Positions 22,302-50,555 are shown, counted from the first letter of the stretch. The stretch: 64,000 bases of DNA from Nibricoccus sp. (GCA_047600805.1 JASGKG010000001.1:1151133-1215132); one strand, 5' to 3'. A program made the numbers and translations. Notes: generated by a model not told the origin, from the sequence alone.

Positions 22302-22571
22302 TCACATTCCGAAGTGCTTGAGCAGCTCGGGATGCGGGCGCGCAATGACGTGGGCGCAGACGAGTTCGCCGACGCGTTTGGCGGCTTCAGCGCCGGCGTC
22401 GATGGCGGCTTTGACGCTGCCGATGTCGCCCTTGACGATGACGGTAACGAGACCGCCGCCGATCTGGATTTGGCGGGCGAGGTTAACGCCTGCCGCTTTG
22501 ACCATGGCATCGCTGGCTTCAACGGAGCCGACGTAGCCTTTGGTTTCGATCATGCCGAGAGATTCACTCAT
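22302..22571 (-). CDS. BMC shell hexamer protein (BMC-H)
   Basis: [29 protein letters not shown]...[38 protein letters not shown]. Confidence 0.9.
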
Positions 22572-22621
22572 GTGGAATCGGATTGAGGTTGGTTGGAGGT
22601 TTACGGGTTAAAATTGGTTCG

Positions 22622-36734: not shown

Positions 36735-36869
36735 CAGATCCGCTTGAGAGGTAACGCAAAGCGCTCCGGCGAAGCCAGCCTAAAGCCAGTAGGGTGGTTC
36801 GCTCAAGGGAGTCGATGTGTTCCAGCATTTTTCTGGTCCGCGGTTCAGGAAACTGTTGAATGAGCGCGC

Positions 36870-37604
36870 TTGAATTCTGGCCCCAACGATTACCCGTCAG
36901 TCACAGTCGACCCGGAACGTCCCTTCGACAGTATTCGTGAACTATATCTGTATCGCGAACCGGAATTGATCGGCGCGATGCTGCGTGGCGATCGTTGCTC
37001 AGCTCGCAAAATCATCAACCACATCTTGGTACACATCTACAGCGTGGGCGAAATTCGCCTCGAACTCCTGAAAGGTCTGCTGCTGGAACTCGTCGTGATG
37101 ATGGCACGAGCCACGGTGGAGGCCGGCGTCGAGCAGGCTGACGTCTTGGGCATGCATTTTCGGCATCTGACTGAACTCGCGGAATTGCGAGATGACGAGG
37201 AGCTGGCCGATTGGTTGAAACGAAGCTTTGAGCGGATCTTCACTGCGTTGGAGCAACAGGAAAAAACCGATTCCCCGCCGCGTGTGGCTCGGGCGTTGGC
37301 CTACATGCGCGATCACCTCGACCGTGAAATTACACGGGAGGAAGTCGCGCAGCACGCGGGGATCTCGCCGGGGCATTTCTCGCATTTGCTGCGGGCTCGC
37401 ACCGGGCGGTCGTTCACTGAGTTGCTACGGTCATTTCGCATCGAGGCGGCTTGCGGACTGTTAAGAACCACGGATCGAACGCTGGCCGAAATCGCGGCGG
37501 CTTGTGGTTTTTGTGACCAGAGTTATTTCACAAATGTGTTTCGCGACCAAAAACAAACCACACCGCGGCTGTACCGTGAGTCCGTGCGAGCGAACGCCAC
37601 GTAA
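36870..37604 (+). CDS. AraC-family transcriptional regulator
   Basis: C-terminal dual HTH: ITREEVAQHAGISPGHFSHLLRARTGRSFTELL...TDRTLAEIAAACGFCDQSYFTNVFRDQKQTTP. Confidence 0.8.
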   Translation: MNSGPNDYPSVTVDPERPFDSIRELYLYREPELIGAMLRGDRCSARKIINHILVHIYSVGEIRLELLKGLLLELVVMMARATVEAGVEQADVLGMHFRHLTELAELRDDEELADWLKRSFERIFTALEQQEKTDSPPRVARALAYMRDHLDREITREEVAQHAGISPGHFSHLLRARTGRSFTELLRSFRIEAACGLLRTTDRTLAEIAAACGFCDQSYFTNVFRDQKQTTPRLYRESVRANAT

Positions 37605-37615
37605 ACACTTGGAAC

Positions 37616-38362
37616 ATGGCAACCGAATACACCAATAAAATCCCGCCAAGATTGGCGCTCATTGCTTGTTCGGTTTTTGAGGATGAGATCGCGCTCCACG
37701 CAAAAGGCGCCGATCACATCGTTGTACGCGTCGATTTTGATATTGGCCTGCACGACCGACCCAACGTGATGCGTGCCAAATTACAGGAAGCCATTTTCGC
37801 TTTGGACGATCGAAATGACATCGAGGCGGTTATTCTTTTGTATGGGTTGTGCGGTCGAGGAACCTCTGGCCTTCGCGCAGGCCGCCACAAGCTGGTGATC
37901 GCTCGTGCGCATGATTGCATGGCGCTGTTTTTGGGAAGTAAGGAACGGTTCGCGGAAAAGCAAGCGGCGTGTCCGAACTGTTATTTTTATACGCCGGGAT
38001 GGAATCGTGCGCGCCGCGTTCCAGGTCCAGAACGACTGGTTGCGCTTCGCGAAGAACTGGCGAAGCGTTTTGATCCGGAAGAAGTGGATTTCCTCGTCGA
38101 GAGCGAACGCGCGCTTTGGGCGGCTCATGGTCATGCCGTGTACCTCGCTCTCGGAACTGCCAACGCGCAGTCCGAAGAGGCGTACGCCAGAAAATGCGCT
38201 GAGGGACTAGGTTGGTCTTTCGAAGCCATTGCAGGCGACGCCACGTTGCTGAAAGACCTGCTGTGGGGTCGCTGGGACGAGGTGCGCTTTCAGGTCGTGG
38301 CTCCTGGCGCGACGCTGCAGCATTCAGTGGATCAAGCGATCTTCAAGACCAGTGAGCATTGA
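37616..38362 (+). CDS. DUF1638-family protein (family found alongside corrinoid methyltransferase systems)
   Basis: ALIACSVFEDEI...ILLYGLCGRGTSGL...ARAHDCMALFLGSKERF...CPNCYF Cys pattern. It sits 12 bp after the AraC gene and directly before the RACo-like gene. Confidence 0.5.
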   Translation: MATEYTNKIPPRLALIACSVFEDEIALHAKGADHIVVRVDFDIGLHDRPNVMRAKLQEAIFALDDRNDIEAVILLYGLCGRGTSGLRAGRHKLVIARAHDCMALFLGSKERFAEKQAACPNCYFYTPGWNRARRVPGPERLVALREELAKRFDPEEVDFLVESERALWAAHGHAVYLALGTANAQSEEAYARKCAEGLGWSFEAIAGDATLLKDLLWGRWDEVRFQVVAPGATLQHSVDQAIFKTSEH

Positions 38363-38368
38363 GCGACG

Positions 38369-39994
38369 ATGATTGTCATACGCGATGCAAACGGCGCGAT
38401 AGAGCGCAAAATAGCGGTGACGAGAGGTTCGTCCCGCTTGCTTTCCGATGTCTTGGCTGAAAATGGCTACCCGCTCAACACCCGCTGCGGAAAACGAGGC
38501 TGGTGTCGTGGCTGCACCGTGGAACTCGCCGAAGGGCGCCCGGGCGTCGGCGAACGAAAAGCTGAAATCAAATCGTGCGGCACGACTGTTCAATCAGATA
38601 CGGAACTGGTTATTCGAGTGCCGGCGCACGCCCGTTTGGAAGCAGAGCCGCAGGTAGGCGACACTTTTGCTGTGAACACGCCGGTGGCGCTGCAGCCATT
38701 GTGGAACGCGGAACCTGGTGTGGCCGACACCGCTTTCGCAGTCGATATCGGCACTACGACTGTCGCGGTGGCGGTCTTGGACCTTGTAAGCGGATCGGTT
38801 TTATCCCGTGCAGGTGATTTCAATGCGCAAATCCGCTACGGCGATAACGTGATTACGCGGATTGTCGCAGCGGGCTCGGCGAGCAAGCGACGTGAGATGC
38901 AACGGGCGATTGTGAACGAAACAATTGCGCCTCTGCTGGCTCAGGCCTGTGGCGAGGCAGGGCGGAGCTTGGAGCGTGTCGTTGGAGGAACCGTCGCGGG
39001 AAATACCACGATGCTCCATATCTTGTGTGGTGAGGATCCCACCAGTCTGGGCAGCGTGCCATTTACGCCGCGCTTCCTGGAGCACCGTACACTCACGGCG
39101 AAGCAGCTCGGACTTGAAGTACAGCTCGATCGCTCTCGCCTTGGCGAGGCAACGCCGGTCGTTGTGCTGCCTGGTTTCTCGGCGTATGTCGGAGCCGATT
39201 TGGCGGCTGGCGTCTATGCCAACGGTATGATGTGCGACGCCACCCCGAGCCTTTTGGTCGATATCGGCACGAACGGCGAAATCGTCCTACAGGCGAATGG
39301 AAAACTTTGGGGGTGTGCGACGGCCGCCGGGCCGGCGTTTGAGGGCGCCGGACTCTTGGCGGGCACGCGTGCGCAATCCGGGGCGATTTCGCATGTAATG
39401 ATTTTTGCGGATCGTGAAGCGAGATTGGAGTTCGAGACCATCGCGGGAACTGCACCTGAAAATGCGCCCGGACTCTGCGGAACGGCCTACATCGACTTTT
39501 TGGCGGCGGGCCGAAACGCAGGCATCCTTACAAGTGCGGGACGCTTCGAAAAGGCGCGCACCGAAAATCTTTTTGCGAGTCGTTTTGTTCAAAACGAACG
39601 CGGGCGCTGCCTCAATCTGGTCGGGCGGATTTGTATCAGCGAAGCGGATATCGCAGCTTTGCTCCAGGCGAAGGCGGCGATAGGGGCGGGGATTGAGACG
39701 CTGCTAAAAAGCGCAGGTTTGGTCCCGAGCGACGTGGGCACGCTGTACCTAGCGGGTGGATTTGGTATGTTTATAGACGTGGCTCACGCGATCGCCATCG
39801 GATTGCTGCCGGGATTTTCCCGCGAGCAGGTCAAAGTCGTGGGGAATACCTCGCTCGCCGGCGCTGTCCTGAGCGCGCTCGATCAGCGAGCCTTGTCGGA
39901 TATGGAGGGATGGCGAAACATAGTTCAAATTGTGGAGCTGAACACGTGCGAGGGCTTCGAGAACTGCTACTTGGATCATTTGGCGCTGCCCTGA
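38369..39994 (+). CDS. reductive activator of corrinoid enzymes (RACo/RamA-like): N-terminal plant-type [2Fe-2S] ferredoxin plus ASKHA-fold ATPase
   Basis: CGKRGWCRGCTVEL (2Fe-2S Cys cluster). ASKHA phosphate-1 motif FAVDIGTTTVAVAVLD. Later LLVDIGTNGEIVL and LAGGFG (adenosine motif). Confidence 0.7.
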   Translation: MIVIRDANGAIERKIAVTRGSSRLLSDVLAENGYPLNTRCGKRGWCRGCTVELAEGRPGVGERKAEIKSCGTTVQSDTELVIRVPAHARLEAEPQVGDTFAVNTPVALQPLWNAEPGVADTAFAVDIGTTTVAVAVLDLVSGSVLSRAGDFNAQIRYGDNVITRIVAAGSASKRREMQRAIVNETIAPLLAQACGEAGRSLERVVGGTVAGNTTMLHILCGEDPTSLGSVPFTPRFLEHRTLTAKQLGLEVQLDRSRLGEATPVVVLPGFSAYVGADLAAGVYANGMMCDATPSLLVDIGTNGEIVLQANGKLWGCATAAGPAFEGAGLLAGTRAQSGAISHVMIFADREARLEFETIAGTAPENAPGLCGTAYIDFLAAGRNAGILTSAGRFEKARTENLFASRFVQNERGRCLNLVGRICISEADIAALLQAKAAIGAGIETLLKSAGLVPSDVGTLYLAGGFGMFIDVAHAIAIGLLPGFSREQVKVVGNTSLAGAVLSALDQRALSDMEGWRNIVQIVELNTCEGFENCYLDHLALP

Positions 39995-40075
39995 GCTACG
40001 CACGTTTTCACAAAAATATCTGCTAAGAGCACAAGAATTTTCCCCGCCCATTTCGGTAGGATGTAGCTCATACCC

Positions 40076-40711
40076 ATGAGCAACTTCCAACCCCTGAGTG
40101 ACGCCGTTCAAAGCGGCAAACGCAACGATGCCAAGCAGCACACCCAAGCGCTGCTTCAAGCTGGCGAAAAGCCTCTCGATATTGTCGAAAAGGGCTTGGT
40201 CCCTGGCATGAGCGCCATAGGCGAGAAGTTTAAGAATAACGAAGTTTTCGTTCCTGAAATGCTAATCGCGGCCCGGGCGATGAAGGAGTGCATGACGATT
40301 CTCGAGCCGTTGCTGGCGCAAGCCGGCATCAAGCCGAAGTACACCGTCGTGATTGGCACCGTCCAAGGGGATCTACACGATATCGGCAAAAACCTTGTGG
40401 CGATGATGCTCAAGGGCGCCAATTTCAACGTTGTGGATTTGGGAACCAATGTAGCTCCCCAAAAGTTCATTGACGCCGCGAAATCGAGCGGCGCGCAAGT
40501 GATTGCCCTTTCCGCTTTGCTCACCACGACCATGCCGGCCATGAAGACGACGATCGATGCCGTGCGAGCAACCGGTCTCGCCGTAAAGATCATGATTGGC
40601 GGCGCTCCCGTCACTCAGGACTACGCCAACGAGATTGGTGCCGAAGGCTACAGCTTGGATGCGGCGAGCGCGGTCGACGTTGCTCTACGGCTCGTTGGGG
40701 AGAAAAAGTAA
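40076..40711 (+). CDS. cobalamin-binding corrinoid protein (methyltransferase cognate corrinoid protein, MtaC/MtbC/MttC type)
   Basis: N-terminal B12-binding_2 helical cap. Rossmann B12-binding domain with DxHxxG motif VIGTVQGDLHDIGKNLV and ...VIALSALLTTTMP. Confidence 0.8.
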   Translation: MSNFQPLSDAVQSGKRNDAKQHTQALLQAGEKPLDIVEKGLVPGMSAIGEKFKNNEVFVPEMLIAARAMKECMTILEPLLAQAGIKPKYTVVIGTVQGDLHDIGKNLVAMMLKGANFNVVDLGTNVAPQKFIDAAKSSGAQVIALSALLTTTMPAMKTTIDAVRATGLAVKIMIGGAPVTQDYANEIGAEGYSLDAASAVDVALRLVGEKK

Positions 40712-40719
40712 GGAATTCC

Positions 40720-41757
40720 GTGGATCGCAAATTTTACCTGGAGCTGGCGGCATCCGGTCTGCGGATGCCGATCGGCACCCATCTGGTGCTTCACCGCTAC
40801 ACGAATGCCGACGAGATCGTGCTTGATGGCGAAAAACTGGGCGGAGTGCTGATCGAAACCGCACAGCGCTTCAAAACACCGCTGGCGGTTCCGCTGATGG
40901 ATCTGACACTCGAAAAAGAAGCGCTCCTGCTTCAACTCGGGGTGCCGGCGTCCGAGGTGAGCCAGTTTCATTGTCACGAACCGGTTGAAACACCCAATGC
41001 CGTCAAGCTGACGCGACGGATGGAGGCCGCATGTCGGGCGATCGAGCATGTGGCCAAAACTTCGGATCTCGTGCCGATGGGTATGTCAATCGGCCCATTT
41101 TCGCTGATGACGAAGTTGCTCGCGGATCCGATCACCCCGGTTTTCCTGGCCGGAACAGGGGCGACTGCGGCTGAAGAGCCGGACATCGCTTTGGTCGAGG
41201 CTGCGCTTGCGGCAGGAGAGAAAGTCATCAGCGCCTATCTCGAAGCGCAGATCGCGGCGGGTGCGAAGGCGATCATCGTGTGCGAACCGGCGGCAAACCT
41301 GGTATACTTTTCCCCGAAGCAGCTGGAACAGGACTTTGCCGTTTTCGACAGGTTAGTGATGGCGCCGATGCTGCGCATATCGAATCTGCTGCACGCTCGC
41401 GGCGTCGACTTGATATTTCACGATTGTGGCGAGCTGACCGACGAAATGGTAAAGCGATTCGCGCTGCTCGGCGCGGCAATGATTAGCCTAGGAAGTTCGC
41501 GCAAACTTTGGGAAGACGCAGCACTGATACCGAAGAACGTCGTTCTCTATGGGAACCTGCCGACGAAACGGTTTTACGCATCGCAATTGTCCGTCCGGGA
41601 AGTCGAAAGCATGGCGAGCGAACTGGTCGCAAAAATGCGTTCGGCAGGGCATCCATTCATCCTGGGGAGTGAATGCGACGTGCTGAGCGTCGCCGGTAGC
41701 GAACAAGAGATTATCGGCAAAGTAGACGCCTTTATGAGCTGCGGGTGCCGCGGCTGA
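40720..41757 (+). CDS. uroporphyrinogen-decarboxylase (URO-D) family corrinoid methyltransferase (MtaA/MtbA- or O-demethylase MT-I-like)
   Basis: 345 aa, a URO-D-like TIM-barrel size and layout. It lies directly (8 bp) downstream of the corrinoid protein gene. I assign the family by overall sequence character; I did not verify specific catalytic residues. Confidence 0.55.
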   Translation: MDRKFYLELAASGLRMPIGTHLVLHRYTNADEIVLDGEKLGGVLIETAQRFKTPLAVPLMDLTLEKEALLLQLGVPASEVSQFHCHEPVETPNAVKLTRRMEAACRAIEHVAKTSDLVPMGMSIGPFSLMTKLLADPITPVFLAGTGATAAEEPDIALVEAALAAGEKVISAYLEAQIAAGAKAIIVCEPAANLVYFSPKQLEQDFAVFDRLVMAPMLRISNLLHARGVDLIFHDCGELTDEMVKRFALLGAAMISLGSSRKLWEDAALIPKNVVLYGNLPTKRFYASQLSVREVESMASELVAKMRSAGHPFILGSECDVLSVAGSEQEIIGKVDAFMSCGCRG

Positions 41758-41774
41758 AGGCTCTCGGCTTCAAA

Positions 41775-44354
41775 TCACTTCGCTGAGTCATCCTGTTTGA
41801 TCACCTTGAGGTCGCCTGCCTTAGCGCTGAAGTCGTAGATATAGGTGTTGAGGAAGTTCTCGATGTGTTGAAATACCTCTGCTTTTGCCTTTGGCATACC
41901 CGCCACGTAGTCATCGCTGAGTGCGTATAGTTCGCTCATTATTTGTCTCTGGCGAAGGCTTTGGGTCAGGCGCTTGGCCTCTGAATAGGCAGACTTCTCG
42001 ATACTGTCGCCGCTGCCGTTGTAGTTAAGCAAGAGCACAGGTTTGGTGATCATCTCGGCTTGCCGCAGGATTGGATTTTCTGCCAAGCGTTGCGGATCGC
42101 CGAGAAATGCTTGAACGAGGGCTGGCCCCGTTTCGGCGTTTGTCCACCGATTTTCTTTTAGCCATCCAGCGGGGTCCAGCATTGCATCAACGGCCACGGC
42201 GCCGCGGAAACGTTGTGGATATAGTTGCAACCCTCGAATCGCCACGTAACCGCCGTGATTCTTGCCCACCAAGGCGACACGTTTGGGGTTTATGGCCACT
42301 CGCTTAGCGAGAAAATCGATCGCGGCAATGATGTCCTCCAGCTGAGAGTCTTCATATCCAGGCCGAACTGCTTCCCTGTGCTTAACTCCGAATCCCCAAG
42401 CTCCGCGATTGTTAACTTGAATAACAGCTAAACCCATGTTGGCGAAGGCCTGTAGCTCTGGTTGATAATCCGCGTGTACTCGCTCCCAGGGATAAGAGGA
42501 GCAGAACGCGACTACGGGAACTGGCATCAAGCGTGCGGTGCTCGGAAACGTGAATGTGCCTGTGACCGTGCGTCCTTTCGAGTCCAGGAAACTGAACATC
42601 GTGATTTCATGCACTTTTTTAGCCGCAAGCGTTGGGTTTCGTTGGGCAAACAATGCGAGTCGGTTTTTCGATGTGTCGAAAACGAAGAACGCTCCTGGAT
42701 CTACGTTTCCTCGCACGCGGACCAGAAAGCGTTGCAGCGCTTGGTCCCATTCTAGAATGTCCACTGATCGCGCAGGGAAACGTGCTTCGAGCAATTTTTG
42801 AGCGGACTGAAGTTCCGGTGGGAACCAGCTGCACGTGTAGGTTGCGCCCTCGTAGCGCAGGCCGCAGAGTTTTTTATTGAAACGATCGAAGACGAGAATG
42901 CGGTCTTCTGTGCTGCCCAACCTTGCCGAGTAGCTAAATTGGGTTTCGATTTTCTTGAACAAACTATCGCTGATCGTCTTGGCCAGGACCGCTTCAGTGC
43001 CGTTGGCATCACCTATAGGGTATTGCTTTTCTAGGGTAGTGCTGGTGGGCGAGCTGGGCTCGGTTGAGGACTCCTGCGCCTGCAGATCGTTTTCTACTCT
43101 TACGAACTGTTCAGCAAATGAATCTCCGCGCTGGTCGCGTTTGCTTCGATCTTCATCAGGGAAAACTCCTGGCGCGGGTGTGAATAGATCGAAAGTGGGA
43201 TTTTCAGCCGCTAAATGTGCGCGCTCACCGGTTTTCATATTCATGGCATACAAACCGTACGTGTTACGACCGACGTTTGATGCGAAATAGAGGGTAGTCT
43301 GATCGTAGTCGAAGCCGAGTGGGATGGACCGTTCACCAAAATAGTTGTCTGGAGAAATAACAAACCCCTTGGCCATGCCGTCCTTCGCGAGATCGTTCAA
43401 AGGTTTCCACCGCTTGATGAATTTTTCCGAATCGTAGGTAAACACGTGGGGGAATTTTTCCCGCGTCGTGCTGGAAATTGCGATGCGAGCTTTCCCTGTA
43501 CGATCAAATAAATAGACTTTCCCGGTGGTTACTGATTCGTGGGAGAACTCCTTGAGCTCTCCCGTGGCCACGTTGAGTTTATAGATATGGGTTTCTTGGG
43601 AGGCGTTGTCTTCAGCGATGCCTTCAGCGCGCACAAGAACGGTGTCAGGAGCTCCTCCGAAAATATCCACGATACGAGGCGTCCTGGGAATCGAGATCAT
43701 GTTGGCTTGACCGCGCGCCCGATCGCGCTGCCATCTCTGAAAATTTGGATCTAGTTTCAATGCTTCGCCGCTCTCTGATTGTGCAGGCGGAAGGATGCGC
43801 TCTTTTCCTGAGGCTCCGGTGGCGCTTCCGTAAGTGGGGTCGGAAATCCATTGGCCGACGTCACGAGGAGTCACCAGCGTCTTCGCGTTTTGCCCGTCGG
43901 CGTCCACTCCTATAATATCTCCTGTGCAGTTCACCCATTTTTCGACGAACCCGATTTTAATATCCTGCGGATAGTTTCGGTTAGTTTCTATAACCAGTCG
44001 TGTTGGAGAAACCCAACGCATCCAGCGGATGTTCCCGGGGACTTTTTCGCTCAGCGTGTCTGCTATTATCGGGGTCGCTGTCGAGTCGGTGACCACAGTG
44101 ACTTTGGCGGTCGCCTTTGTAGGATTATCGACATCGACGACTACGACCGAGAGATTTTCTCCTTCGCGCAATGTATATGCGAGGTACTTCCCGTCCGGAG
44201 ACAAGGTGGCTCTTTCAGTTTTGAAAGGCGTGAAGAGGTCGACGAATCGATCTCCTTCAGGTTCCGCTGTGCTGGAAGACGGTTCAGCAGCTGTCGTCTG
44301 GTCGATTCCTGATCCAAGTAACGCCAAAATGAGTACAAGCCGGAGGTAACGCAT
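41775..44354 (-). CDS. secreted S9-family (prolyl oligopeptidase / DPP-like) beta-propeller + alpha/beta-hydrolase protein, probably non-catalytic (nucleophile Ser replaced by Asn)
   Basis: Signal peptide MRYLRLVLILALLGSG. N-terminal propeller-like region. C-terminal hydrolase fold where the GxSxGG elbow reads VALVGKNHGGYVAI, and no obvious GH dipeptide near the C-terminus. Confidence 0.65.
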   Translation of the reverse strand: MRYLRLVLILALLGSGIDQTTAAEPSSSTAEPEGDRFVDLFTPFKTERATLSPDGKYLAYTLREGENLSVVVVDVDNPTKATAKVTVVTDSTATPIIADTLSEKVPGNIRWMRWVSPTRLVIETNRNYPQDIKIGFVEKWVNCTGDIIGVDADGQNAKTLVTPRDVGQWISDPTYGSATGASGKERILPPAQSESGEALKLDPNFQRWQRDRARGQANMISIPRTPRIVDIFGGAPDTVLVRAEGIAEDNASQETHIYKLNVATGELKEFSHESVTTGKVYLFDRTGKARIAISSTTREKFPHVFTYDSEKFIKRWKPLNDLAKDGMAKGFVISPDNYFGERSIPLGFDYDQTTLYFASNVGRNTYGLYAMNMKTGERAHLAAENPTFDLFTPAPGVFPDEDRSKRDQRGDSFAEQFVRVENDLQAQESSTEPSSPTSTTLEKQYPIGDANGTEAVLAKTISDSLFKKIETQFSYSARLGSTEDRILVFDRFNKKLCGLRYEGATYTCSWFPPELQSAQKLLEARFPARSVDILEWDQALQRFLVRVRGNVDPGAFFVFDTSKNRLALFAQRNPTLAAKKVHEITMFSFLDSKGRTVTGTFTFPSTARLMPVPVVAFCSSYPWERVHADYQPELQAFANMGLAVIQVNNRGAWGFGVKHREAVRPGYEDSQLEDIIAAIDFLAKRVAINPKRVALVGKNHGGYVAIRGLQLYPQRFRGAVAVDAMLDPAGWLKENRWTNAETGPALVQAFLGDPQRLAENPILRQAEMITKPVLLLNYNGSGDSIEKSAYSEAKRLTQSLRQRQIMSELYALSDDYVAGMPKAKAEVFQHIENFLNTYIYDFSAKAGDLKVIKQDDSAK

Positions 44355-44499
44355 AGCTCCCGTTGAAACGAATGAGATTTCTAAGTTGTTTACGTAATTC
44401 TAAAATAAACGCTCAAATTGCGACAATTAAACACGTGGTGCGCAAATGGTCAGCTCACCTGCTGCTATGACGCCCGTTAGGTAAATGCTGTTACGAACT

Positions 44500-46965
44500 T
44501 TATTCGAAACGAATCGAAAAAGGACCCGCCGAAATATCGCATTGGAAAGATAAAGCAGTGTTCTTCGTGACTACCTTTATTTGGAGGTCCCGTTTGAAAG
44601 GTCGCACGAGACGAGCGGGTATTTTGGTGAGGTCAAGAACGGACGCTGAGTCGTCCCATGCCAGCTTCAGCTTTGTATAATCTCCGTCCTCATAGCCGTA
44701 GCCGTCTCCATCATCCTCGTAGAGTTCAAACGCTCCATCTTTGCCTGCGTAGATTCGGATCTCATATGAAGTGTTTAGCCTCTCTCCGACATGTTGCTGT
44801 CGTTCTGTGCAAAGAGGAATGATTGATCCCTCTGGGATGAAGAGAGGAATGGTTTCCAGCGGAGCGTCGGTGTCGATGGTTTGGCCGCCTTCGTAGAGTT
44901 TGTTCGTCCAAAAATCGTACCAGCGACGGTCGGCGGGGAGATAGACAGCGCGAGTTTTCGGAATATCGACCAGCGGAGTGGAATTGCGCTCGTAATACAT
45001 TGGCTGCGTAACCGGGCACACCATCAAGCTAGGTCCAAACATGAACTGGTCGGTGACCCCGAATGTGGCGGGGTCATTGGGAAATTCCAGCGGCAGAGCA
45101 CGGATGAGCGTGTAACTATCGAACGTGACTTGAGCCGCGAGCGAGTAAATGTAGGGAAGAAATTGATACCGGAGCCGAATGTACTTCGCAATTGTATCGT
45201 AGAACGGAGTGCCTTCTTCGCCGAAGCGCCAGATTTCGCGAGCCGCATCGGTGCCGTGCGAGCGGAACATCGGCAGAAAGGCGCCGTATTGAAGCCAGCG
45301 CGTGTAGAGCTCCCAAAAACCGAGATCTTTGCAGCCCGTGTCGTGAGGATCCGGCTCCAGGGCGGTCATTGGAGTCAGCCCACGACAGCCTTCGCTGTAG
45401 TCGCCGCGCCAGAACCAAAGCTTGGGATCGTTGTTTATAAAAAAACCGCCGATATCGACCGTCCAATAGGGTTCTCCAGCGGCGCAAAAATTTAGACCTT
45501 CAGGAATGGATCGGCGCAAAGTCTCCCACGTCGCGCAAATATCTCCGGACCACGTGACAGTCGCGTAACGGTGCTGGCCGGCATAGGAAGAACGCGTGAG
45601 GTTGATCACTCGCTTTTCGTTCGTGACACCGCGTTGCCCCTCGTAAATGCCCTGCGAGTGGAGCAGCGAGTAGTTGTTGATTTGTCCTGCATCGATGTAC
45701 CTTTTTGATTGCTCGGTATTGATGCCCAACCGAGCGTGTGGCTCGGGCTTAACCGCGCCAGCCCAGTCGGCTTCGAAGGGTTCGGTGCAATCGCACCACC
45801 AAGCGTCGACACCGTGCGCAAAAAGCCCGCGGTTGGCCTGCTCCCAGTAGACGCGGCGTGCGTCTGGTGAAAACGCGTTGTAAGTCGATTGGTTCCCCAG
45901 CATCAGATCGCCCTCGCGGAGCTCGATTTGATTCGGGCAGTCGCCGGTCATGATCGGCCAAATCGAAATCATCAGTTTCGCGCCAAGTCGGTGGAGTTCG
46001 TCGATAAAAGCCTTTGGATCGGGAAAACGTTCGGGGTCGAATGTTTTTTGCCCCCAACCATCGCCTTTGGGCCAAGATTTCCAGTCGAGTACGATCACGT
46101 CGAGCGGTATCTTACGGCGGCGGTGCTCGCGAACGACTTCGATCATCTCGCGAGCGTTGACATAGCGTTCTTTCGACTGGACGAAACCGAACGCCCACTT
46201 GGGTAGCATCGGTGGCTTGCCGGTCAGCTCATGGTAACCGCGAGTAACGTCGTCAAATTTCTCCCCGCGGATGAAATAGAAATCTAATTCGTCAACGACC
46301 TCCGCCCACAAATAGGAGCCAAATGCGTCGTCATGAAAAGTCATCAACGAACCACAATCGAGAAGTAAGCCATAGCCCTTCGTGGATACGAAGTAGGGCA
46401 CGACCGCTTTCATGTTCTGTTGGTAAAGCTCGCGCGATTTGCGTCGAAGATTGCCGTAGCCTTCCTCGTGAGATCCGAGTCCGAAGAGCGCTTCATTTTC
46501 GCTGAAGACGAATTCGAGTTTCGCCTCGAAGGCTTTGCGATCGAAAACGCGTTCGAATTCGGTGGCCGTTGCTCGTGCCCCATCGATGCTCTGGCCGGTG
46601 GAGGTTTTGGCGTCGTGTCTGTAGATGTTTTTGAAAACATCCTTCGATGTCAGCCATTTGCCTCCGCGAGCTGGTTCACTAAGGAGTGTGTTGCCGGACG
46701 GGTCGAAGTAACTGATCGAGCCGGTCATCTTGTTGACACGTAGAACTAAGTAAGCCGTTGCGAGCACGAACTCGCTCTGCTCCACAGTCAATTGGTAGTC
46801 GCGGCAGACAGGACGCTTTTGAACGATCAAGCTCGGCGCATCGCCAAAGGGCTTTCCCTCTGTGACGGTGATGCGCGCGATTTTTGGCGAGCAAAACGCA
46901 ATACGCAGCAGGCGATCGCCGTTCTTGAAAACGACAGCGCCGTCTTGGCGTTCGATTGTGTACAT
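44500..46965 (-). CDS. glycoside hydrolase family 31 (alpha-xylosidase/alpha-glucosidase, YicI-like), cytoplasmic
   Basis: 821 aa. GH31 catalytic region KIPLDVIVLDWKSW...GVDAWWCDCTEPFE...WSGD. No signal peptide. Confidence 0.8.
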   Translation of the reverse strand: MYTIERQDGAVVFKNGDRLLRIAFCSPKIARITVTEGKPFGDAPSLIVQKRPVCRDYQLTVEQSEFVLATAYLVLRVNKMTGSISYFDPSGNTLLSEPARGGKWLTSKDVFKNIYRHDAKTSTGQSIDGARATATEFERVFDRKAFEAKLEFVFSENEALFGLGSHEEGYGNLRRKSRELYQQNMKAVVPYFVSTKGYGLLLDCGSLMTFHDDAFGSYLWAEVVDELDFYFIRGEKFDDVTRGYHELTGKPPMLPKWAFGFVQSKERYVNAREMIEVVREHRRRKIPLDVIVLDWKSWPKGDGWGQKTFDPERFPDPKAFIDELHRLGAKLMISIWPIMTGDCPNQIELREGDLMLGNQSTYNAFSPDARRVYWEQANRGLFAHGVDAWWCDCTEPFEADWAGAVKPEPHARLGINTEQSKRYIDAGQINNYSLLHSQGIYEGQRGVTNEKRVINLTRSSYAGQHRYATVTWSGDICATWETLRRSIPEGLNFCAAGEPYWTVDIGGFFINNDPKLWFWRGDYSEGCRGLTPMTALEPDPHDTGCKDLGFWELYTRWLQYGAFLPMFRSHGTDAAREIWRFGEEGTPFYDTIAKYIRLRYQFLPYIYSLAAQVTFDSYTLIRALPLEFPNDPATFGVTDQFMFGPSLMVCPVTQPMYYERNSTPLVDIPKTRAVYLPADRRWYDFWTNKLYEGGQTIDTDAPLETIPLFIPEGSIIPLCTERQQHVGERLNTSYEIRIYAGKDGAFELYEDDGDGYGYEDGDYTKLKLAWDDSASVLDLTKIPARLVRPFKRDLQIKVVTKNTALSFQCDISAGPFSIRFE

Positions 46966-46974
46966 GTTAGATAG

Positions 46975-48339
46975 TTAGCTTTTTGACGCAACGGATGCGT
47001 CGGCCGTTCGGCGAGCATTTAGCTCCTCCTGGATCTTTGGTTCCATTTTTTCGAACCGGTGATAAAACAGGACCGGCAAAAGCGAGAGGCTAAGGCAGAT
47101 TGCTGGAAGCCAGATTGTGCAAAACATGATCGCGTGAGCGGACTCCACCGTGAGCGCCTGTTTGGCCTTCCAGCCAGCGGCGCCCATGATCCACATCGGA
47201 ATTGCACCGCCGAGTCCGGCTCCGGCTTTAAGACAAAACGCAGCCCCGATTGCAGTGAGCAGCCCAGCCGCACGTACTCCGGTTTTCCATTCGCCGTAAT
47301 CCACGCTCTCGGAGAGGACCGAAAAAGGCATGGCCATCGCCATGCCGCTAAAAATGAACCCGACAGCCCACCCGGTCATTATCAACAAAACGGAGGCGTC
47401 TTGTCCTGTGCCAAAAGCGACGATCACCTGACCGATGATCATTCCTGCAAGACCGATCACCCACGCGCCCGTTTTCGAAACAGCACGGCAGGTCCAAGGG
47501 AGTAGCAGAGCGGTGGCAAGAGAGGCGAAGTCAAGCAACCCAGCCGGCTTGATGAGATCCGGCCTGTTTAAAATCCCCTCAAAAAAGAACGGAGCGACCG
47601 TCACGCGCGCGATGAAACCGATCCAGAAGAAAAAGCTGCTCGCAAAAATGATGAACCACGGCCAATTGCCCTGAAGAGCGCGAAAGCTGCCGGTGATCGG
47701 ACGCGGTTTTTCTTCGACCCTCACCACTTCCTTCAGATTGCGGAAAGCCAGCAGGAACGCGCCAATAGAGATAATGGCAAAGGCGGAAAGCACGATCATG
47801 AAGCCTTTGCGATCGTTGCCATTGCCAATGCGACGGGCCAAATCGATACCGGTAAAGTTGACGATGGCGACGCCGAGCTTTGATCCGACCATCCGAAAGG
47901 TCGTGAGCGTCACGCGCTCTTGCGGAGACGTTGTGAGTGCCGAAAGAATCGATGTGACGGGCGTATTGATTCCGGTGTAGATGACGTTGACCGCGATGTA
48001 GGTGAGCGCCGCATACACGGCTTTGGCGTTATAGCTCAGATCGGGTGTCACAAACGACAGAAAGCCGAATAAGGCAAAAGGGCCACATAGCCAGAGAAAC
48101 CAGGGACGACTTTTGCCCCAACGACTGTTGGTGCGGTCAAAGATCACACCCCAAACGGGCGCATCGATCGCATCGACAAAGCGCGCGATGAAAACGATTG
48201 TTCCTGCCGCCGCGGCAGTCAGGCCGTAGACGTTAGCGTAGAAATAAGGCAGGTACCACATGATCCAGCCGAAGAGAAGCTGCCCGCCGATGTCGGGCAG
48301 GGCGTAGCTGAAGCGAGTGGCGAGGGAGGTTTTGGTCAT
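46975..48339 (-). CDS. glycoside-pentoside-hexuronide (GPH):cation symporter, MFS superfamily (YicJ/MelB-like)
   Basis: 12-TM profile. N-terminal GPH motif region LPDIGGQLLFGWIMWYLPYFY...GVIFDRT. Located immediately upstream of the GH31 gene, as yicJ is of yicI. Confidence 0.8.
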   Translation of the reverse strand: MTKTSLATRFSYALPDIGGQLLFGWIMWYLPYFYANVYGLTAAAAGTIVFIARFVDAIDAPVWGVIFDRTNSRWGKSRPWFLWLCGPFALFGFLSFVTPDLSYNAKAVYAALTYIAVNVIYTGINTPVTSILSALTTSPQERVTLTTFRMVGSKLGVAIVNFTGIDLARRIGNGNDRKGFMIVLSAFAIISIGAFLLAFRNLKEVVRVEEKPRPITGSFRALQGNWPWFIIFASSFFFWIGFIARVTVAPFFFEGILNRPDLIKPAGLLDFASLATALLLPWTCRAVSKTGAWVIGLAGMIIGQVIVAFGTGQDASVLLIMTGWAVGFIFSGMAMAMPFSVLSESVDYGEWKTGVRAAGLLTAIGAAFCLKAGAGLGGAIPMWIMGAAGWKAKQALTVESAHAIMFCTIWLPAICLSLSLLPVLFYHRFEKMEPKIQEELNARRTADASVASKS

Positions 48340-48379: not shown

Positions 48380-49465
48380 TCAAAGCAATAGTTCGGTTAA
48401 ATCGTAACGTGCCAAAATGTCATGGAGTTTTACCGCGTGGCTGGTGGTAGTAGATTCCTCCATCGCCTGTAGAAGCGCGATCGTCACAATGCCCTCGCGG
48501 ACGTCCGGCTTGGGCGTTTCGTTGTGAGCGAGGCAACGGGCGAAGTATTCGATATAGTTTTGATATTCGCCGGCGTGATGCGTGTGCCCCTCGAATCGGA
48601 AATAGTAATTTTCGGCGCCTTCGAAATTTTCGATGACGGCTTGCGAACCGATCTTCCAAGAATAGCGAAGCTCATGGTAATCCGCCTGGCTGGCGCCGTT
48701 GGTGCAGCGAAGCACACAGCTCATCCCACTGTCACGTTGGGCGGGAACGGTTGGGCTGGAATAGGTGCCACTCACGCGAGCGATCCGGCCGGAAGCGGAT
48801 TTGAAGATAAAGTGAAACGTGTCTGGATTCACGAGGCCGCCAGCGCGACCCGTGGGGCTGAGGTCGGCATAGCCCATCACTTCCGAAACATCCGGCATGT
48901 ACCAACGAATGAAGTCTGCCGGGTGGCTAAGTCCGCCGAAGAGCCACTTGAATGAAGGCTTCTTTGCCCAGGGTTTTTCGAGAAACCAACGATGGTCGGC
49001 ATTGTAATACGCTTCGACGGTGATGAGATCGCCGAAAGCGCCGGTGAGGAAGTGTTCACGTTGCCGTGAGAAGGGTGCGAAATAACGCGAGCTTTGGCCG
49101 ACCATCACCTGCTTGCCGCTGCGTTGTTGGGCATTGAGGACCTCGCGAGCTTGAGAAAGGTCGTTGAGAAATGGTTTGGTGCAGATGACGTGTTTGCCGG
49201 CGTTGAGCGCTTCGATGACGTGTGTGGCATGAAGATGATCCGGTGTATAGATGCCGACTGCATCCACGTGAGGATCCGTGAGAACTTGGGCGTAGGAAGT
49301 GGTAAAGTGTTTCGGATTGAGCTGGAACTCGGCGCAACGTTCGCGTCCGAGTTGTTCATCCAGATCACAAAGCCAGACGACGTCCCAGAGGGAACTTTCG
49401 ACACCAGCTGAAATGATGCTGCGACCTTCACCAAGGCCTAAAACGGCGAGTCCGAGTTTTTTCAT
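48380..49465 (-). CDS. Gfo/Idh/MocA-family NAD(P)-dependent oxidoreductase
   Basis: MKKLGLAVLGLGEGR Rossmann N-terminus. ...HVICTKPF (EKP-like motif) and a C-terminal alpha/beta dimerisation domain. Confidence 0.85.
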   Translation of the reverse strand: MKKLGLAVLGLGEGRSIISAGVESSLWDVVWLCDLDEQLGRERCAEFQLNPKHFTTSYAQVLTDPHVDAVGIYTPDHLHATHVIEALNAGKHVICTKPFLNDLSQAREVLNAQQRSGKQVMVGQSSRYFAPFSRQREHFLTGAFGDLITVEAYYNADHRWFLEKPWAKKPSFKWLFGGLSHPADFIRWYMPDVSEVMGYADLSPTGRAGGLVNPDTFHFIFKSASGRIARVSGTYSSPTVPAQRDSGMSCVLRCTNGASQADYHELRYSWKIGSQAVIENFEGAENYYFRFEGHTHHAGEYQNYIEYFARCLAHNETPKPDVREGIVTIALLQAMEESTTTSHAVKLHDILARYDLTELLL

Positions 49466-49475: not shown

Positions 49476-50555
49476 TTAGTAGTAGGGCTCGATGATTTTC
49501 AACGCGAGGTCTGCTTCTTTTTGATCTTTGAACTGGATCAGCATGTAGACGCCTTTGGTGCCGATCGTGTCGATGAGCGGTTTGATGTCGCTGAGCTCGA
49601 CGTTGACGACCTGGACGGATTTTCCGGCGGCGAGGATGCGCTTGTAGAGATCGTACCAGCGTTTATTGCCACCCGGTTCGATTCCTGCCTGGGGAGTCCA
49701 TTCGACGGCGTCGAGTGGTTCGATGGAAAGGAGCGCATCCAAGTGAACCATCGCCTGCGTGCCGTCGAGATGATAGAGCGAGTGGTCAAGCCATTCGCAT
49801 TGCGCGGTGAGTGCGGGCACCACCAATTGTTTGTACATGTCAGGCGAGAACATTGCAGACGCGTCGCACTGGACTTTGGCGGTTTTTCCTGGTCCCCAAA
49901 TGTAGAACGCGTCGAAAACCGAACTGCCGTCAGGGAGCTTAATGATGTCGTAAATCCGCTGGTACGCCTCGAAGTAGGCGTCGTTGATTTCCCATATCTT
50001 CTTCTCGATCCACTCCGGCCTCTCGATCATGTCCATCATAAGCGTCTGCGCGCCGCGCAGCGAGGAAAGGATGTCCATGTTTTCAATGAGGTCAGGACTG
50101 CCGACGAAGTATTTGCTGCGGGACTTTTCTTGGCACTGGCGCAGGATCGCTTCCGTCGTTTTCCACCAATGGCCTTCCGGATTAAACCGGATCGGAGGCA
50201 ACTCCTCAGGATTTTCAACGTGTTCAATGCAGGGGTTGAACCACACAGTGCCCTCGGCAAAGCCTGGCTCGGAGCCGCAGTACATCGCGAGTGTTCCCGG
50301 TCCCAGATCTGGACTGCTCGTGGGCAGAACGTCCAGCGGGAAGATCGACCGGGACAGTCGGTAGTGGTTTTGCGCTGCGCGGTAAGCGGCATTGCAATAG
50401 CGCTCGTCGATCGTCGATGGAGCGACGGGGACGCTAACTTGTTCGTGGATACAGGCGCTGGTTTCGGGCGCGCCCCACATGCCGACGAGAAGGCCGTCGC
50501 GATTCCACCACTTGAGAAAACGCTGTTGAGTTTCGGTCCAGTTGGATTTCCACAT
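49476..50555 (-). CDS. conserved hypothetical cytoplasmic protein (359 aa), unknown function, embedded in glycan-utilisation block
   Basis: Real-protein composition (W/Y/K/E rich) in contrast to the low-complexity antisense ORF. No motif I can assign. Tightly packed between the Gfo/Idh/MocA gene (10-bp gap) and the esterase gene. Confidence 0.5.
   Translation of the reverse strand: MWKSNWTETQQRFLKWWNRDGLLVGMWGAPETSACIHEQVSVPVAPSTIDERYCNAAYRAAQNHYRLSRSIFPLDVLPTSSPDLGPGTLAMYCGSEPGFAEGTVWFNPCIEHVENPEELPPIRFNPEGHWWKTTEAILRQCQEKSRSKYFVGSPDLIENMDILSSLRGAQTLMMDMIERPEWIEKKIWEINDAYFEAYQRIYDIIKLPDGSSVFDAFYIWGPGKTAKVQCDASAMFSPDMYKQLVVPALTAQCEWLDHSLYHLDGTQAMVHLDALLSIEPLDAVEWTPQAGIEPGGNKRWYDLYKRILAAGKSVQVVNVELSDIKPLIDTIGTKGVYMLIQFKDQKEADLALKIIEPYY

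Follow-up and report, generated by a model that had tools for sequence, protein, structure and literature searches.

Background

Corrinoid-based methyl transfer in aerobes is exemplified by the split MetH/MtgC hub of the Roseobacters Phaeobacter inhibens and Ruegeria pomeroyi, bacteria that are neither acetogenic nor methanogenic (PMC5764234, PMC12478193). In this hub, a trio consisting of a stand-alone cap and B12 protein, a RamA/RACo-like activase with a ferredoxin and a DUF1638 protein serves methionine synthesis and several donors; one carrier works with several methyltransferases, and homocysteine is one acceptor (PMC5764234, PMC12478193). The donor enzymes are a pterin-binding protein for methyl-THF and MtgB for glycine betaine. 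Both the DUF1638 protein and the RamA-like protein are genetically required in the split MetH of Phaeobacter (PMC5764234), and there is precedent for one carrier and activase common to MT-I enzymes that are encoded elsewhere (PMC8604678).

UroD-superfamily enzymes are found in several other systems. Type 1 mlp clusters, described in the preprint of Kountz & Balskus, combine His-Cys-Cys UroD enzymes with a corrinoid protein and a RACE/RACo activase, have no H4folate methyltransferase and have been proposed to function in methyl-S or methyl-Se metabolism (PMC10418091). Such a cluster requires at least an Mlp2 and an Mlp3, both of which share about 30% identity with MtaA/MtbA/MtsA, and is confined to obligate anaerobes, chiefly Firmicutes (PMC10418091). 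The same preprint offers a zinc-ligand rule, to which exceptions exist: His-Cys-Cys marks S/Se-methyltransferases, and in O-demethylases the Cys positions are taken by carboxylates or non-ligands (PMC10418091). The OdmABCD, VdmB, MtvABC, MtoABCD, CmuAB and CdmBCA systems follow a logic of UroD-superfamily MT-I, corrinoid protein, MT-II and ATP-dependent activase, with a pterin-type MT-II inside the operon and aromatic or halomethane substrates. Bacterial UroD-superfamily corrinoid methyltransferases are MT-I, and the characterised bacterial MT-II are pterin-type (PMC13222342).

In this study, a five-gene cassette of Nibricoccus (Verrucomicrobiota), a sugar-degrading bacterium of soil and freshwater that carries a B12-based methyl-shuttling gene set, was analysed within a 64-kb stretch of DNA (the window) and compared with its related loci. 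Judged from sequence and comparative context, and with a probability of about one half, these genes are the core of a modular hub for corrinoid methyl transfer, in which the UroD-superfamily protein URO-D(345) would act on the donor side and the acceptor enzyme would be encoded elsewhere in the genome.

Materials and methods

Neighbourhood counts were made over 23 related loci with good flanks, most of them MAG or metagenome contigs and not independent of one another in phylogeny. Context counts for C6, a gene of the window outside the cassette, cover 49 metagenome loci with a minimum length of 6 kb, and a separate clustering count covers 80 loci. All large ORFs of the window were scanned with Pfam, and the window was searched by tblastn with MtaB, homocysteine S-methyltransferase, MtaA-like proteins and UroD paralogues. 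Gene content, motifs, folds, synteny and co-occurrence were recorded as observations.

Results

Layout of the cassette and its auxiliary proteins

The five ORFs lie on the plus strand at positions 36870-41757 (Table 1), exactly where the first-pass annotation had placed five co-directional genes, and its domain calls, including the DxHxxG motif and the [2Fe-2S] ferredoxin, were all borne out by Pfam and motif reading. The intergenic gaps are 11, 6, 81 and 8 bp in order; the earlier values of 12, 7, 82 and 8 bp were right for the last gap and off by one, trivially, for the others.

Table 1 Features of the cassette and of the adjacent sugar operon in the 64-kb window
Feature	Coordinates	Strand	Remarks
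AraC-family regulator	36870..37604	+	244 aa; HTH_18/HTH_AraC Pfam 2.6e-21
DUF1638 protein	37616..38362	+	248 aa; PF07796 6.3e-33
RACo/RamA-type activase	38369..39994	+	541 aa; PF14574 6.7e-66, PF17651 1.2e-42
Corrinoid (B12) methyl-carrier protein	40076..40711	+	211 aa; PF02607 1.9e-21, PF02310 4e-27
URO-D(345)	40720..41757	+	345 aa; URO-D PF01208 7.3e-19
GH31 alpha-xylosidase-type glycoside hydrolase	44500..46965	-	Pfam GH31 8.6e-91
GPH-family glycoside:cation symporter (MFS_2)	46975..48339	-	TIGR00792 gph 330 bits, cut-off 231
GFO/IDH/MocA oxidoreductase	48380..49465	-	Pfam; directly downstream of C6, 10-bp gap
C6, unannotated	49476..50555	-	359 aa; MtaA/UroD-type (beta/alpha)8 fold, predicted; His262-x-Asp264

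The AraC regulator has a C-terminal HTH domain and a helical N-terminal region of about 130 aa without a Pfam domain. The activase consists of an N-terminal [2Fe-2S] ferredoxin, a middle and an ASKHA domain; its Fer2 Pfam match is weak, motif reading gives the plant-type [2Fe-2S] pattern Cys40-x5-Cys46-x2-Cys49...Cys70, and the match to NCBIfam AcsV (2.3e-91) is under the model cut-off. The corrinoid protein is of the MtaC/MtgC/MetH type, built from a cap and a Rossmann domain, and its ligation is His-on. Its B12-ligand motif was read as D99-L-H101-D-I-G104, and the check for a missing His ligand found H101 in place; MtgC and pyl_corrinoid are its top NCBIfam models, both under their cut-offs. 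Thus a corrinoid protein with a cap and a DxHxxG Rossmann domain and a RACo/RamA activase with an Fe-S module, the features looked for, were both found. By analogy with Phaeobacter, the DUF1638 protein is a putative accessory factor in reactivation of the corrinoid protein.

The gene set supports the earlier proposal that the cassette supplies the auxiliary components for multi-component corrinoid methyl transfer. The genes are not clustered by chance, since they are syntenic with the URO-D orthologue across several phyla. URO-D(345) is the one methyltransferase in the cassette; about 8 kb from it lies C6, another protein with a predicted UroD fold. In the 64-kb window, Pfam scans of all large ORFs found no MtaB, MttB, pterin-type or homocysteine methyltransferase and no PF00809 protein; the tblastn searches gave no such partner either, and neither method found a PF02574 homocysteine-binding protein. 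The first-pass statement that no MtaB/MttB/pterin-type partner is visible therefore holds for the whole window.

Identity of URO-D(345)

URO-D(345) is closest to MtaA, both by structure and by profile match. A profile search with the subfamily reaches 4ay7 at 1.8e-5, and single-sequence phmmer with URO-D(345) did not recover it. The protein scores far under the cut-offs of all MtaA/MtbA/CmuA models (TIGR01463, NF040654, NF041608), with 16.3 bits against 235.4 for TIGR01463, 26.3 against 400 for the MtaA model and 29.5 against 600 for the MtbA model. Its HxC motif aligns with the zinc motif LHICGN of MtaA, and the zinc-type triad His234-Cys236-Cys319 is invariant among 27 aligned members; all 32 orthologues carry His-Cys-Cys, one sequence ending before the third ligand. 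The orthologues form a compact, separate subfamily hosted by PVC bacteria, Armatimonadota and Sumerlaeota. These features point to a corrinoid methyltransferase of the UroD superfamily that has a putative zinc site and belongs to a new, compact subfamily.

Related loci

Across the 23 well-flanked loci, the corrinoid protein and the URO-D orthologue form a constant core with varying partners. The corrinoid protein accompanies the URO-D orthologue in 18/23, mostly immediately upstream and usually at a spacing of about 10 bp; the remaining five lack it within about 10 kb, which counts against the hub reading. The other cassette genes were found at 14 (DUF1638), 13 (RACo) and 11 (AraC orthologue) of these loci. 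MtaB is the commonest methyltransferase neighbour (7/23), other UroD paralogues occur at 9/23, a canonical MtaA-like paralogue at three loci, and C6 at only 4/23. Homocysteine S-methyltransferase is present at six loci, where PF02574 lies inside the operon (L006, L011, L012, L120, L121 and L123), and a pterin methyltransferase at only one (L122), together with MtaB, MTHFR and FolD. L121 is an isolated operon that holds the corrinoid protein, URO-D, homocysteine S-methyltransferase and nothing else. L002 and L018 contain MtaB and URO-D, and in the DNA covered at these two loci nothing could be recognised as an acceptor enzyme. One UroD-type methyltransferase with a corrinoid protein, an activase and no second methyltransferase was found in the window, L008, L013 and L028. 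The neighbourhoods contain no aromatic-catabolism genes.

C6 and the adjacent sugar operon

C6 lies in an alpha-xyloside/pectin-type operon next to the cassette. The Pfam search with C6 gave no match even at E <= 1, PF01208 included, similarity to curated families was not detectable, and its hhalign probability against the URO-D(345) profile was 0.5%; predicted fold and gene context suggest its placement in the UroD superfamily. GH31 is found near C6 at 27/49 metagenome loci (34/80 by clustering). Among PDB entries, the GH31 enzyme of the window is most similar to the alpha-xylosidases BoGH31A (7.5e-143) and Xyl31A. The symporter, presumed to import the substrate glycoside, lies downstream of C6 at 20 of the 49 loci. 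The oxidoreductase, which is weakly similar to NCBIfam sugar and glycoside dehydrogenases, adjoins C6 at 10-11 loci. C6 is far more closely associated with glycan genes than URO-D(345) is.

The His262-x-Asp264 motif of C6 resembles the O-type zinc sites of the O-demethylase/chloromethane group, whereas the site of URO-D(345) is S-type. C6 is a candidate second, O-type donor-side methyltransferase, which would use the cassette's corrinoid protein. Its genomic links are to glycoside hydrolases and sugar transporters, unlike those of the aromatic-linked O-demethylases. Marine porphyran degraders reportedly demethylate 6-O-methyl-galactose with a cytochrome P450, an O2-dependent monooxygenase that releases formaldehyde; to our knowledge, this is the only known sugar O-demethylase within polysaccharide-utilisation loci. 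C6 is proposed to solve the same problem with unrelated chemistry and an unrelated enzyme family.

Discussion

Comparison with described systems

The cassette shares its auxiliary trio with the Roseobacter hub, and its relatives with a stand-alone PF02574 protein in the operon extend the likeness. The first-pass view overstated how unusual such a system is beyond acetogens and methanogens, as the trio works in aerobic Roseobacters (PMC5764234, PMC12478193). Here, however, a UroD-superfamily enzyme is constant, the window has no homocysteine or pterin module, and the host phyla and the glycan-degrading context are different. Like type 1 mlp clusters, the cassette has a His-Cys-Cys UroD-superfamily enzyme, a corrinoid protein, an activase and no H4folate methyltransferase; unlike them, it lacks the Mlp2 and Mlp3 pair, contains one far more divergent UroD enzyme together with DUF1638 and AraC, and is found in PVC-type glycan degraders. 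It follows the general logic of the O-demethylase/chloromethane operons, but URO-D(345) has no O-type site and the cluster has no pterin MT-II. Compared with the methanogen MtaB/MtaC/MtaA and MtsA/MtsB systems, URO-D(345) is set apart by its low model scores, and for this protein context favours a donor-side role and not CoM methylation. The hosts of the cassette are not known to synthesise coenzyme M.

Proposed mechanism

The direction of methyl flow, all substrates and the pairing of C6 with this corrinoid protein are our inference. With its B12 bound His-on, the corrinoid protein would cycle between Co(I) and CH3-Co(III). URO-D(345) would bind a small methyl compound via a soft heteroatom, perhaps a methyl-thioether or methanethiol, a methyl-selenide or methyl halide being less likely, and attack by Co(I) on the bound compound would load the carrier with methyl. 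Cofactor that has been oxidised to Co(II) would be returned to Co(I) by the RACo-type activase, assisted by DUF1638, with ATP and electrons delivered via the [2Fe-2S] centre, and AraC would control expression. CH3-Co(III) would be unloaded by an enzyme encoded outside the cassette: in relatives, this would mostly be a stand-alone homocysteine S-methyltransferase that forms methionine, and in one relative a pterin-binding methyltransferase with MTHFR and FolD, giving methyl-THF for oxidation. Across genomes, the same carrier may accept other donor-side enzymes, namely MtaB (methanol), UroD paralogues and C6.

Alternative roles of URO-D(345)

URO-D(345) is most likely a donor-side MT-I, as the first-pass annotation had offered with an acceptor encoded elsewhere, and the comparative context favours this role since only then does L121 contain a complete donor, carrier and acceptor set; L122 likewise has a separate pterin MT-II. 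A possible though tentative reading is that it is an acceptor-side MT-II, a bacterial counterpart of methanogen MtaA, which would pass methyl from the CH3-Co(III) corrinoid protein to a zinc-activated thiol (sulfide or methanethiol, giving a volatile methyl sink, or some cellular thiol), with MtaB for methanol, C6 or other UroD paralogues as donor enzymes. Thiol-methylating MT-II enzymes such as MtaA work with a His-Cys-Cys site just as well, and MtaA is the best structural and profile match. This role also fits because L002 and L018 contain MtaB and URO-D with no other acceptor in the DNA covered; moreover, URO-D is constant while known or likely MT-I enzymes vary, and the window would be formally complete as O-type donor (C6), carrier and S-type acceptor, like MtaB/MtaC/MtaA. 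L121, however, would then have two acceptor enzymes and zero donors, and acceptors would be redundant in the six loci with homocysteine S-methyltransferase, the one with pterin MT-II and the three with a canonical MtaA-like paralogue. The characterised bacterial MT-II, moreover, are pterin-type and not UroD-type (PMC13222342), and an acceptor thiol cannot be named for these bacteria.

The lone UroD-type methyltransferase beside carrier and activase in the window and three relatives, together with the S-type zinc site, would also suit a bifunctional enzyme that, with the corrinoid protein alone, moves methyl from a methyl-thioether to Co(I) and then from CH3-Co(III) to a thiol, so that the five genes are self-sufficient. 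MtsA/MtsB of Methanosarcina is the precedent. This is very unlikely for URO-D(345), as most well-flanked loci hold additional methyltransferases and similarity to MtaA/MtbA/MtsA is very low (TIGR01463). An O-demethylase MT-I of the Odm/Vdm/Mtv kind, acting on methoxylated aromatics or O-methyl sugars, is very unlikely: a UroD-superfamily gene does stand beside a carrier and an activase as in O-demethylase operons (PMC13222342), and pectin and hemicellulose genes abound in its genomic surroundings, but the first-pass analogy with phenyl-methyl-ether O-demethylases fails because the triad is invariantly of the S/Se type and O-demethylases replace Cys with carboxylates (PMC10418091). The neighbourhoods, too, lack aromatic-catabolism genes, and GH31 accompanies C6, which is itself seldom near URO-D. 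A genuine hemE with coincidental corrinoid neighbours is suggested by the Pfam family name and by HemE structures whose scores nearly reach that of MtaA. The TIGR01464 score, 32.7 bits against a cut-off of 302.95, effectively rules out this identity, for which the first-pass annotation had asked a check, as do the HxC...C triad, which is not a HemE feature, the corrinoid-protein synteny kept across phyla and the separate subfamily.

Implications

The first-pass idea of methylated plant sugars as substrates gains real contextual support through C6, but not through the URO-D gene. Since a B12 gene set stands beside a sugar operon that contains C6, a protein of the same predicted fold, these bacteria may demethylate methylated plant sugars by a route that needs no oxygen.

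Genomic context of the cassette

The five cassette genes were located on the plus strand at exactly the coordinates, and in the common direction, reported by the first-pass annotation, and its domain calls for all five products were borne out by Pfam (see table). The gaps between the genes are 11, 6, 81 and 8 bp. The corrinoid protein carries the histidine ligand on which that annotation had made its reading depend, in a His-on motif (D99-L-H101-D-I-G104), and the ferredoxin pattern of the RACo-type activase is C40-x5-C46-x2-C49...C70. The reported lack of an MtaB, MttB or pterin-type partner holds across the whole window: no MtaB, MttB, pterin-binding, homocysteine-binding or MtaA-like methyltransferase was found anywhere in the 64 kb. 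No Rfam family matched at gathering thresholds across the window, hence no cobalamin riboswitch was detected in it, and sigma-70 promoter and intrinsic terminator scans of 36500-44600 gave fewer matches than shuffled sequence. The hybrid histidine kinase gene that lies divergently beside the AraC gene keeps this position in a related Nibricoccus MAG (L001; 71% identity), and the kinase could be part of cassette regulation.

A convergent minus-strand gene string ends 17 bp from the stop codon of the URO-D gene, and no terminator-like hairpin was detected between this codon and the S9 peptidase stop codon (41757-41775). The genes from GH2 through GH31 in this string are separated by 3-40 bp, and one of them encodes C6, an unannotated 359-aa protein. 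The S9 gene occupies the same position in the related loci L001, L118 and L119, and L001 and L118, at a URO-D identity of 75-78%, also keep the convergent layout of cassette and C6 operon. The rest of the window contains GH28, a pectate-lyase-like protein, deoxy-sugar catabolism genes, and PdxA with a four-carbon acid-sugar kinase. The deoxy-sugar cluster (9249-23305) is consistent with fucose or rhamnose breakdown to propanediol or lactate. The SSF, PdxA and kinase group may represent a tetronate or branched-sugar pathway (perhaps for apiose or aceric acid) tied to substrates of the rhamnogalacturonan-II (RG-II) type. A long ORF overlaps the SSF ORF, and the real start of this long ORF is therefore probably further downstream.

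Features of the window and of related loci (L handles)
Feature	Position	Strand	Remarks
LutABC-like proteins	9249-12018		deoxy-sugar cluster
FGGY kinase	12086-13567		deoxy-sugar cluster
630-aa protein	13756-15648	-	no significant Pfam domain; partial pectate lyase PelZ likeness (NCBIfam 4e-39, far under cut-off)
Ldh/Mdh	15765-16697		deoxy-sugar cluster
Class II aldolase	16810-17961		deoxy-sugar cluster
Aldehyde dehydrogenase	18539-19990		deoxy-sugar cluster
Acetate kinase	20725-21912		deoxy-sugar cluster
PduL	22622-23305		deoxy-sugar cluster
Hybrid histidine kinase	33810-36734	-	periplasmic SBP_bac_3 sensor, PAS, HisKA/HATPase, receiver
AraC regulator	36870-37604	+	244 aa; HTH_18/HTH_AraC
DUF1638 protein	37616-38362	+	248 aa; Pfam 6e-33
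RACo-type activase	38369-39994	+	541 aa; RACo_C_ter 7e-66, Raco_middle 1e-42, weak Fer2
Corrinoid protein	40076-40711	+	211 aa; B12-binding_2 + B12-binding
URO-D-family protein, URO-D(345)	40720-41757	+	345 aa; URO-D Pfam 7e-19
BT_1020-like beta-propeller protein		-	string, 1 (transcription order)
GH2 with malectin domain		-	string, 2
GH2		-	string, 3
SASA esterase		-	string, 4
C6	49476-50555	-	string, 5
GFO/IDH/MocA oxidoreductase		-	string, 6
GPH glycoside symporter		-	string, 7
GH31		-	string, 8; alpha-xylosidase type; BoGH31A, E 7.5e-143
S9 peptidase		-	string, 9 (last)
Long ORF	58443-60620		overlaps SSF ORF
SSF symporter, PdxA-family dehydrogenase, four-carbon acid-sugar kinase	60242-63996	-	upstream of glycoside hydrolase string; PdxA 9e-104; kinase SBD_N/NBD_C
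Methanol-to-folate module	L122:10836-18283		MtaB, FolD, amidohydrolase, pterin-binding methyltransferase, MTHFR
Small P-loop protein	L002:7119-7706; L029:12489-13076; L030:11051-11599		~180-195 aa; GPRGAGKT + CxCC; weak CobW/HypB/UreG (PF02492, 5e-4)
491-aa protein	L030:7733-9208		no significant Pfam match (weak DUF455, 0.07)
~418-aa UroD paralogue	L006:6917-8170; L007:3564-4820; L011:11036-12289; L120:13772-15028; L123:16939-18198		FKHSCGAV (His-x-Cys, third ligand uncertain)
K2 family, examples	L074:9987-10826; L124:11097-11936		~279 aa
PhyH-type dioxygenase	L059:9963-10784; L124:12796-13617; P0365 contig		Fe(II)/2-oxoglutarate type

URO-D(345) family and zinc site

URO-D(345) is not the uroporphyrinogen decarboxylase HemE, the identity that the first-pass annotation had named as its refutation (TIGR01464, 32.7 bits against a cut-off of 302.95), and it also falls under every MtaA, MtbA and CmuA model cut-off. 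An exhaustive HMMER search of 1.8 billion representative proteins found only 341 clusters at 50% identity, many made up of fragments, which marks the subfamily as compact and distinct. Only weak HemE matches were obtained from the PDB with the single sequence; a family profile was needed to reach MtaA (4ay7), the best solved relative (1.8e-5), with the family motif lHdCGeL aligned to LHICGNV of MtaA. H234, C236, G237, E318, C319 and D320 are invariant in the 27-member alignment. The His-Cys-Cys triad is kept by 32/32 orthologues in the related loci, one being cut off before the third ligand; it is not kept by the other UroD paralogues of these loci, among which the third ligands of distant members were assigned from low-identity alignments. 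The structures of URO-D(345) and C6 are both predictions. In this superfamily, His-Cys-Cys zinc spheres belong to S-methyltransferases, possibly also acting on Se, and O-demethylases have carboxylates in the Cys positions (Kountz & Balskus preprint, PMC10418091).

Gene neighbourhoods of URO-D(345)

The 38 examined loci with a URO-D(345) orthologue came from Opitutaceae, Methylacidiphilales, Chthoniobacterales, Kiritimatiellia, Lentisphaerae, Victivallales, Phycisphaerae, a Kuenenia MAG, Armatimonadota and Sumerlaeaceae. Neighbours were counted in the 23 loci that extend 3 kb or more to each side, using gene calls from a GC3-based heuristic and tblastn; most of the loci come from MAGs or metagenome contigs, several of them closely related, and the counts therefore do not represent independent events. 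A corrinoid protein accompanied URO-D(345) in 18/23 loci, nearly always directly upstream; the counts for the other neighbours were DUF1638 (14), RACo (13), AraC (11), other UroD paralogues (9), MtaB (7; PF12176, 2e-169), stand-alone homocysteine S-methyltransferase (HcyMT; PF02574) (6), C6 (4), a canonical MtaA-like paralogue (3), a small CobW-like GTPase (3) and a pterin-binding methyltransferase (1). The gene order in L011, for example, is AraC, DUF1638, RACo, corrinoid protein, MtaB, HcyMT and URO-D.

Several further genes were observed in these loci. The module beside the cassette on the Phycisphaerae contig L122 is a complete methanol-to-folate set, which suggests that a planctomycete oxidises methanol by a corrinoid-dependent route. 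The gene for the small P-loop protein comes directly after that for MtaB or URO-D(345), and its product may serve these zinc methyltransferases as a zinc chaperone. In Synoicihabitans lomoniglobus (L030), the operon of corrinoid protein and URO-D is headed by a 491-aa protein that by eye looks like a ferritin or di-iron type. The ~418-aa UroD paralogue, which recurs beside URO-D(345) and HcyMT, is an uncharacterised candidate for a further donor-side methyltransferase.

Donor or acceptor role of URO-D(345)

We propose, with a probability of roughly 0.5, that URO-D(345) is a donor-side methyltransferase (MT-I) that loads the carrier from a soft-heteroatom methyl donor, with homocysteine as the usual final acceptor of the methyl group. 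Loading of the carrier is indicated by the constant pairing of carrier and URO-D(345), by the recurrence of acceptor-side enzymes (HcyMT and pterin methyltransferase), and by the self-contained operon of L121. This reading agrees with the general role of bacterial UroD enzymes: the characterised members MtvB, OdmB, VdmB, MtoB, CmuA and CdmB are donor-side MT-I, and MtvA, MtqA, OdmD and bacterial MtaA are acceptor-side (MT-II) enzymes of the pterin type (PMC13222342). It also agrees with the Roseobacter hub of CP, RamA-like protein and DUF1638, whose single carrier takes part both in methionine synthesis and in the demethylation of glycine betaine (PMC5764234, PMC12478193). In E. limosum, MT-I enzymes encoded elsewhere have MtqC, MtqA and RamQ in common (PMC8604678).

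The main rival, serious even though we consider it less probable, places URO-D(345) on the acceptor side, as an MT-II resembling MtaA with a thiol as methyl acceptor. Among the methyltransferase neighbours MtaB is the most frequent, and L002 and L018 combine MtaB with URO-D and no other acceptor in the DNA examined; the grouping of MtaB and variable paralogues around a constant pair of corrinoid protein and URO-D would likewise suit a shared acceptor. An acceptor role is nevertheless difficult to reconcile with L121, where corrinoid protein, URO-D and HcyMT make up an isolated operon, with L122, where the cassette lies beside MtaB and has its own pterin MT-II, MTHFR and FolD, and with L029, L005 and L030, which encode canonical MtaA-like paralogues alongside URO-D(345).

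C6 and its association with sugar genes

Family searches of Pfam and NCBIfam gave no assignment for C6, and its 2,447 homologues, in Verrucomicrobiota and Planctomycetota, are all labelled 'hypothetical'. A link to the UroD superfamily is provided by the PF01208-positive His-x-Asp paralogue of L012, which matches C6 (tblastn, E 6e-5). The C6 segment YHLDGT, with invariant H262-L-D264-G, lies opposite FHDCGE of URO-D(345) in a non-significant hhalign alignment, on which the literature ligand rule would tentatively make the C6 zinc site O-type.

Corrinoid proteins are encoded directly upstream of C6 in L064, L065, L079, L099 and a 984-kb JGI contig; the order in the last is AraC, then across a divide PhyH, corrinoid protein, C6 and GH31. 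In L040 the order is corrinoid protein, MtaB and C6, with MtaB and C6 overlapping by 4 bp. In L032 (Opitutus sp. ER46), C6 is followed by DUF1638, corrinoid protein and URO-D(345). L124 has three groups in succession, namely DUF1638, RACo, AraC and a UroD paralogue, then HcyMT, then corrinoid protein and C6, with similar arrangements in L077 and L096.

Sugar genes were counted around C6 in 80 metagenome loci, 49 of them at least 6 kb long. GH31 was near C6 in 34/80 loci (27/49 of the longer ones), the GPH symporter in 15-20, AraC in 16, DUF3826 in 14, MR_MLE and GD_AH dehydratases in 13 each, SDR, RraA-like aldolase, PhyH dioxygenase and GFO oxidoreductase in 11 each, and GH141 in 9. Pectinesterase, C6, GPH and GH31 occur together in a Thermoguttaceae MAG. 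The commonest gene immediately downstream of C6 belongs to K2, an unannotated family present in 20/80 loci (directly downstream in 14) and absent from the window; a Pfam search with K2 gave no match, and judged by eye the protein resembles a barrel of the sugar isomerase/epimerase type. The PhyH-type dioxygenase recurs beside both C6 and the corrinoid protein, and could, as a speculation, be an oxygen-dependent alternative demethylase.

The 2-O-methyl-Xyl-Fuc linkage is the sole bond that Bacteroides thetaiotaomicron is not known to cleave. Use of the disaccharide 2-O-methyl-Xyl-alpha1,3-Fuc would require alpha-xylosidase, glycoside symporter, fucosidases and fucose-catabolism genes, together with an enzyme that removes the methyl group, and C6 is therefore a candidate methyltransferase. 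From predicted fold and gene context, C6 is possibly, at less than even odds, an O-methyl-sugar:corrinoid methyltransferase using the corrinoid protein and activase of the cassette, the sole ones nearby. GH141 was founded on BT1002, which frees 2-O-methyl-D-xylose-alpha1,3-L-fucose from RG-II, and GH139 is a 2-O-methyl-L-fucosidase (PMC10154630). The most plausible substrates of C6 would be 2-O-methyl-D-xylose, or 2-O-methyl-Xyl-alpha1,3-Fuc from GH141/RG-II, and/or 2-O-methyl-fucose. The GPH symporter would take the substrate in, C6 would move its methyl group onto Co(I), the GH31 alpha-xylosidase would then split the demethylated substrate, and the methyl group would be handed on to homocysteine, giving methionine, or to another acceptor. 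Alternatively, C6 may be a non-methyltransferase enzyme of UroD fold that works with the neighbouring oxidoreductase, or a methanol-related enzyme. Under the demethylase reading, which we hold only tentatively, C6 would found an unrecognised UroD-superfamily clade and form, with the corrinoid protein, activase and DUF1638 of the cassette, the first corrinoid-dependent, oxygen-independent carbohydrate O-demethylase.

Discussion

Corrinoid methyltransferase systems are known from methanogens and acetogens and, lately, from marine Roseobacters and gut Firmicutes. The cassette shares its auxiliary trio with the Roseobacter split-MetH/MtgC hub, URO-D(345) has the fold and zinc site of MtaA, and type 1 mlp clusters likewise combine UroD enzymes with a carrier and an activase, without a folate methyltransferase; the defining features of each are present only in part. 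We classify as new the catalytic modules and ecological setting of a known hub. No papers on corrinoid-dependent sugar O-demethylation, this cassette in PVC bacteria, the URO-D(345) subfamily or the C6 family were found in a literature search whose coverage excludes most subscription journals, which makes this absence weak.

The hub of carrier, activase and DUF1638 is widespread in polysaccharide-degrading Verrucomicrobiota, Planctomycetota, Kiritimatiellia, Lentisphaerae, Armatimonadota and Sumerlaeota. Its coupling to a new subfamily of zinc UroD enzymes, and in many genomes also to MtaB and homocysteine methyltransferase, suggests that methyl groups of plant and algal polymers are routed directly to methionine or C1 metabolism. 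Under the tentative demethylase reading of C6, PVC glycan degraders would harvest pectin methyl groups via one B12 hub, with methanol entering by MtaB, methyl ethers by C6 and its paralogues, and methyl-S compounds by URO-D(345). The C6 family offers a testable candidate for oxygen-free demethylation of O-methyl sugars, such as the 2-O-methyl-xylose of RG-II. If true, this would add a new enzyme class within polysaccharide-utilisation loci, explain a B12 requirement of these bacteria, and tie pectin turnover to the cycling of methanol, methanethiol and methionine.
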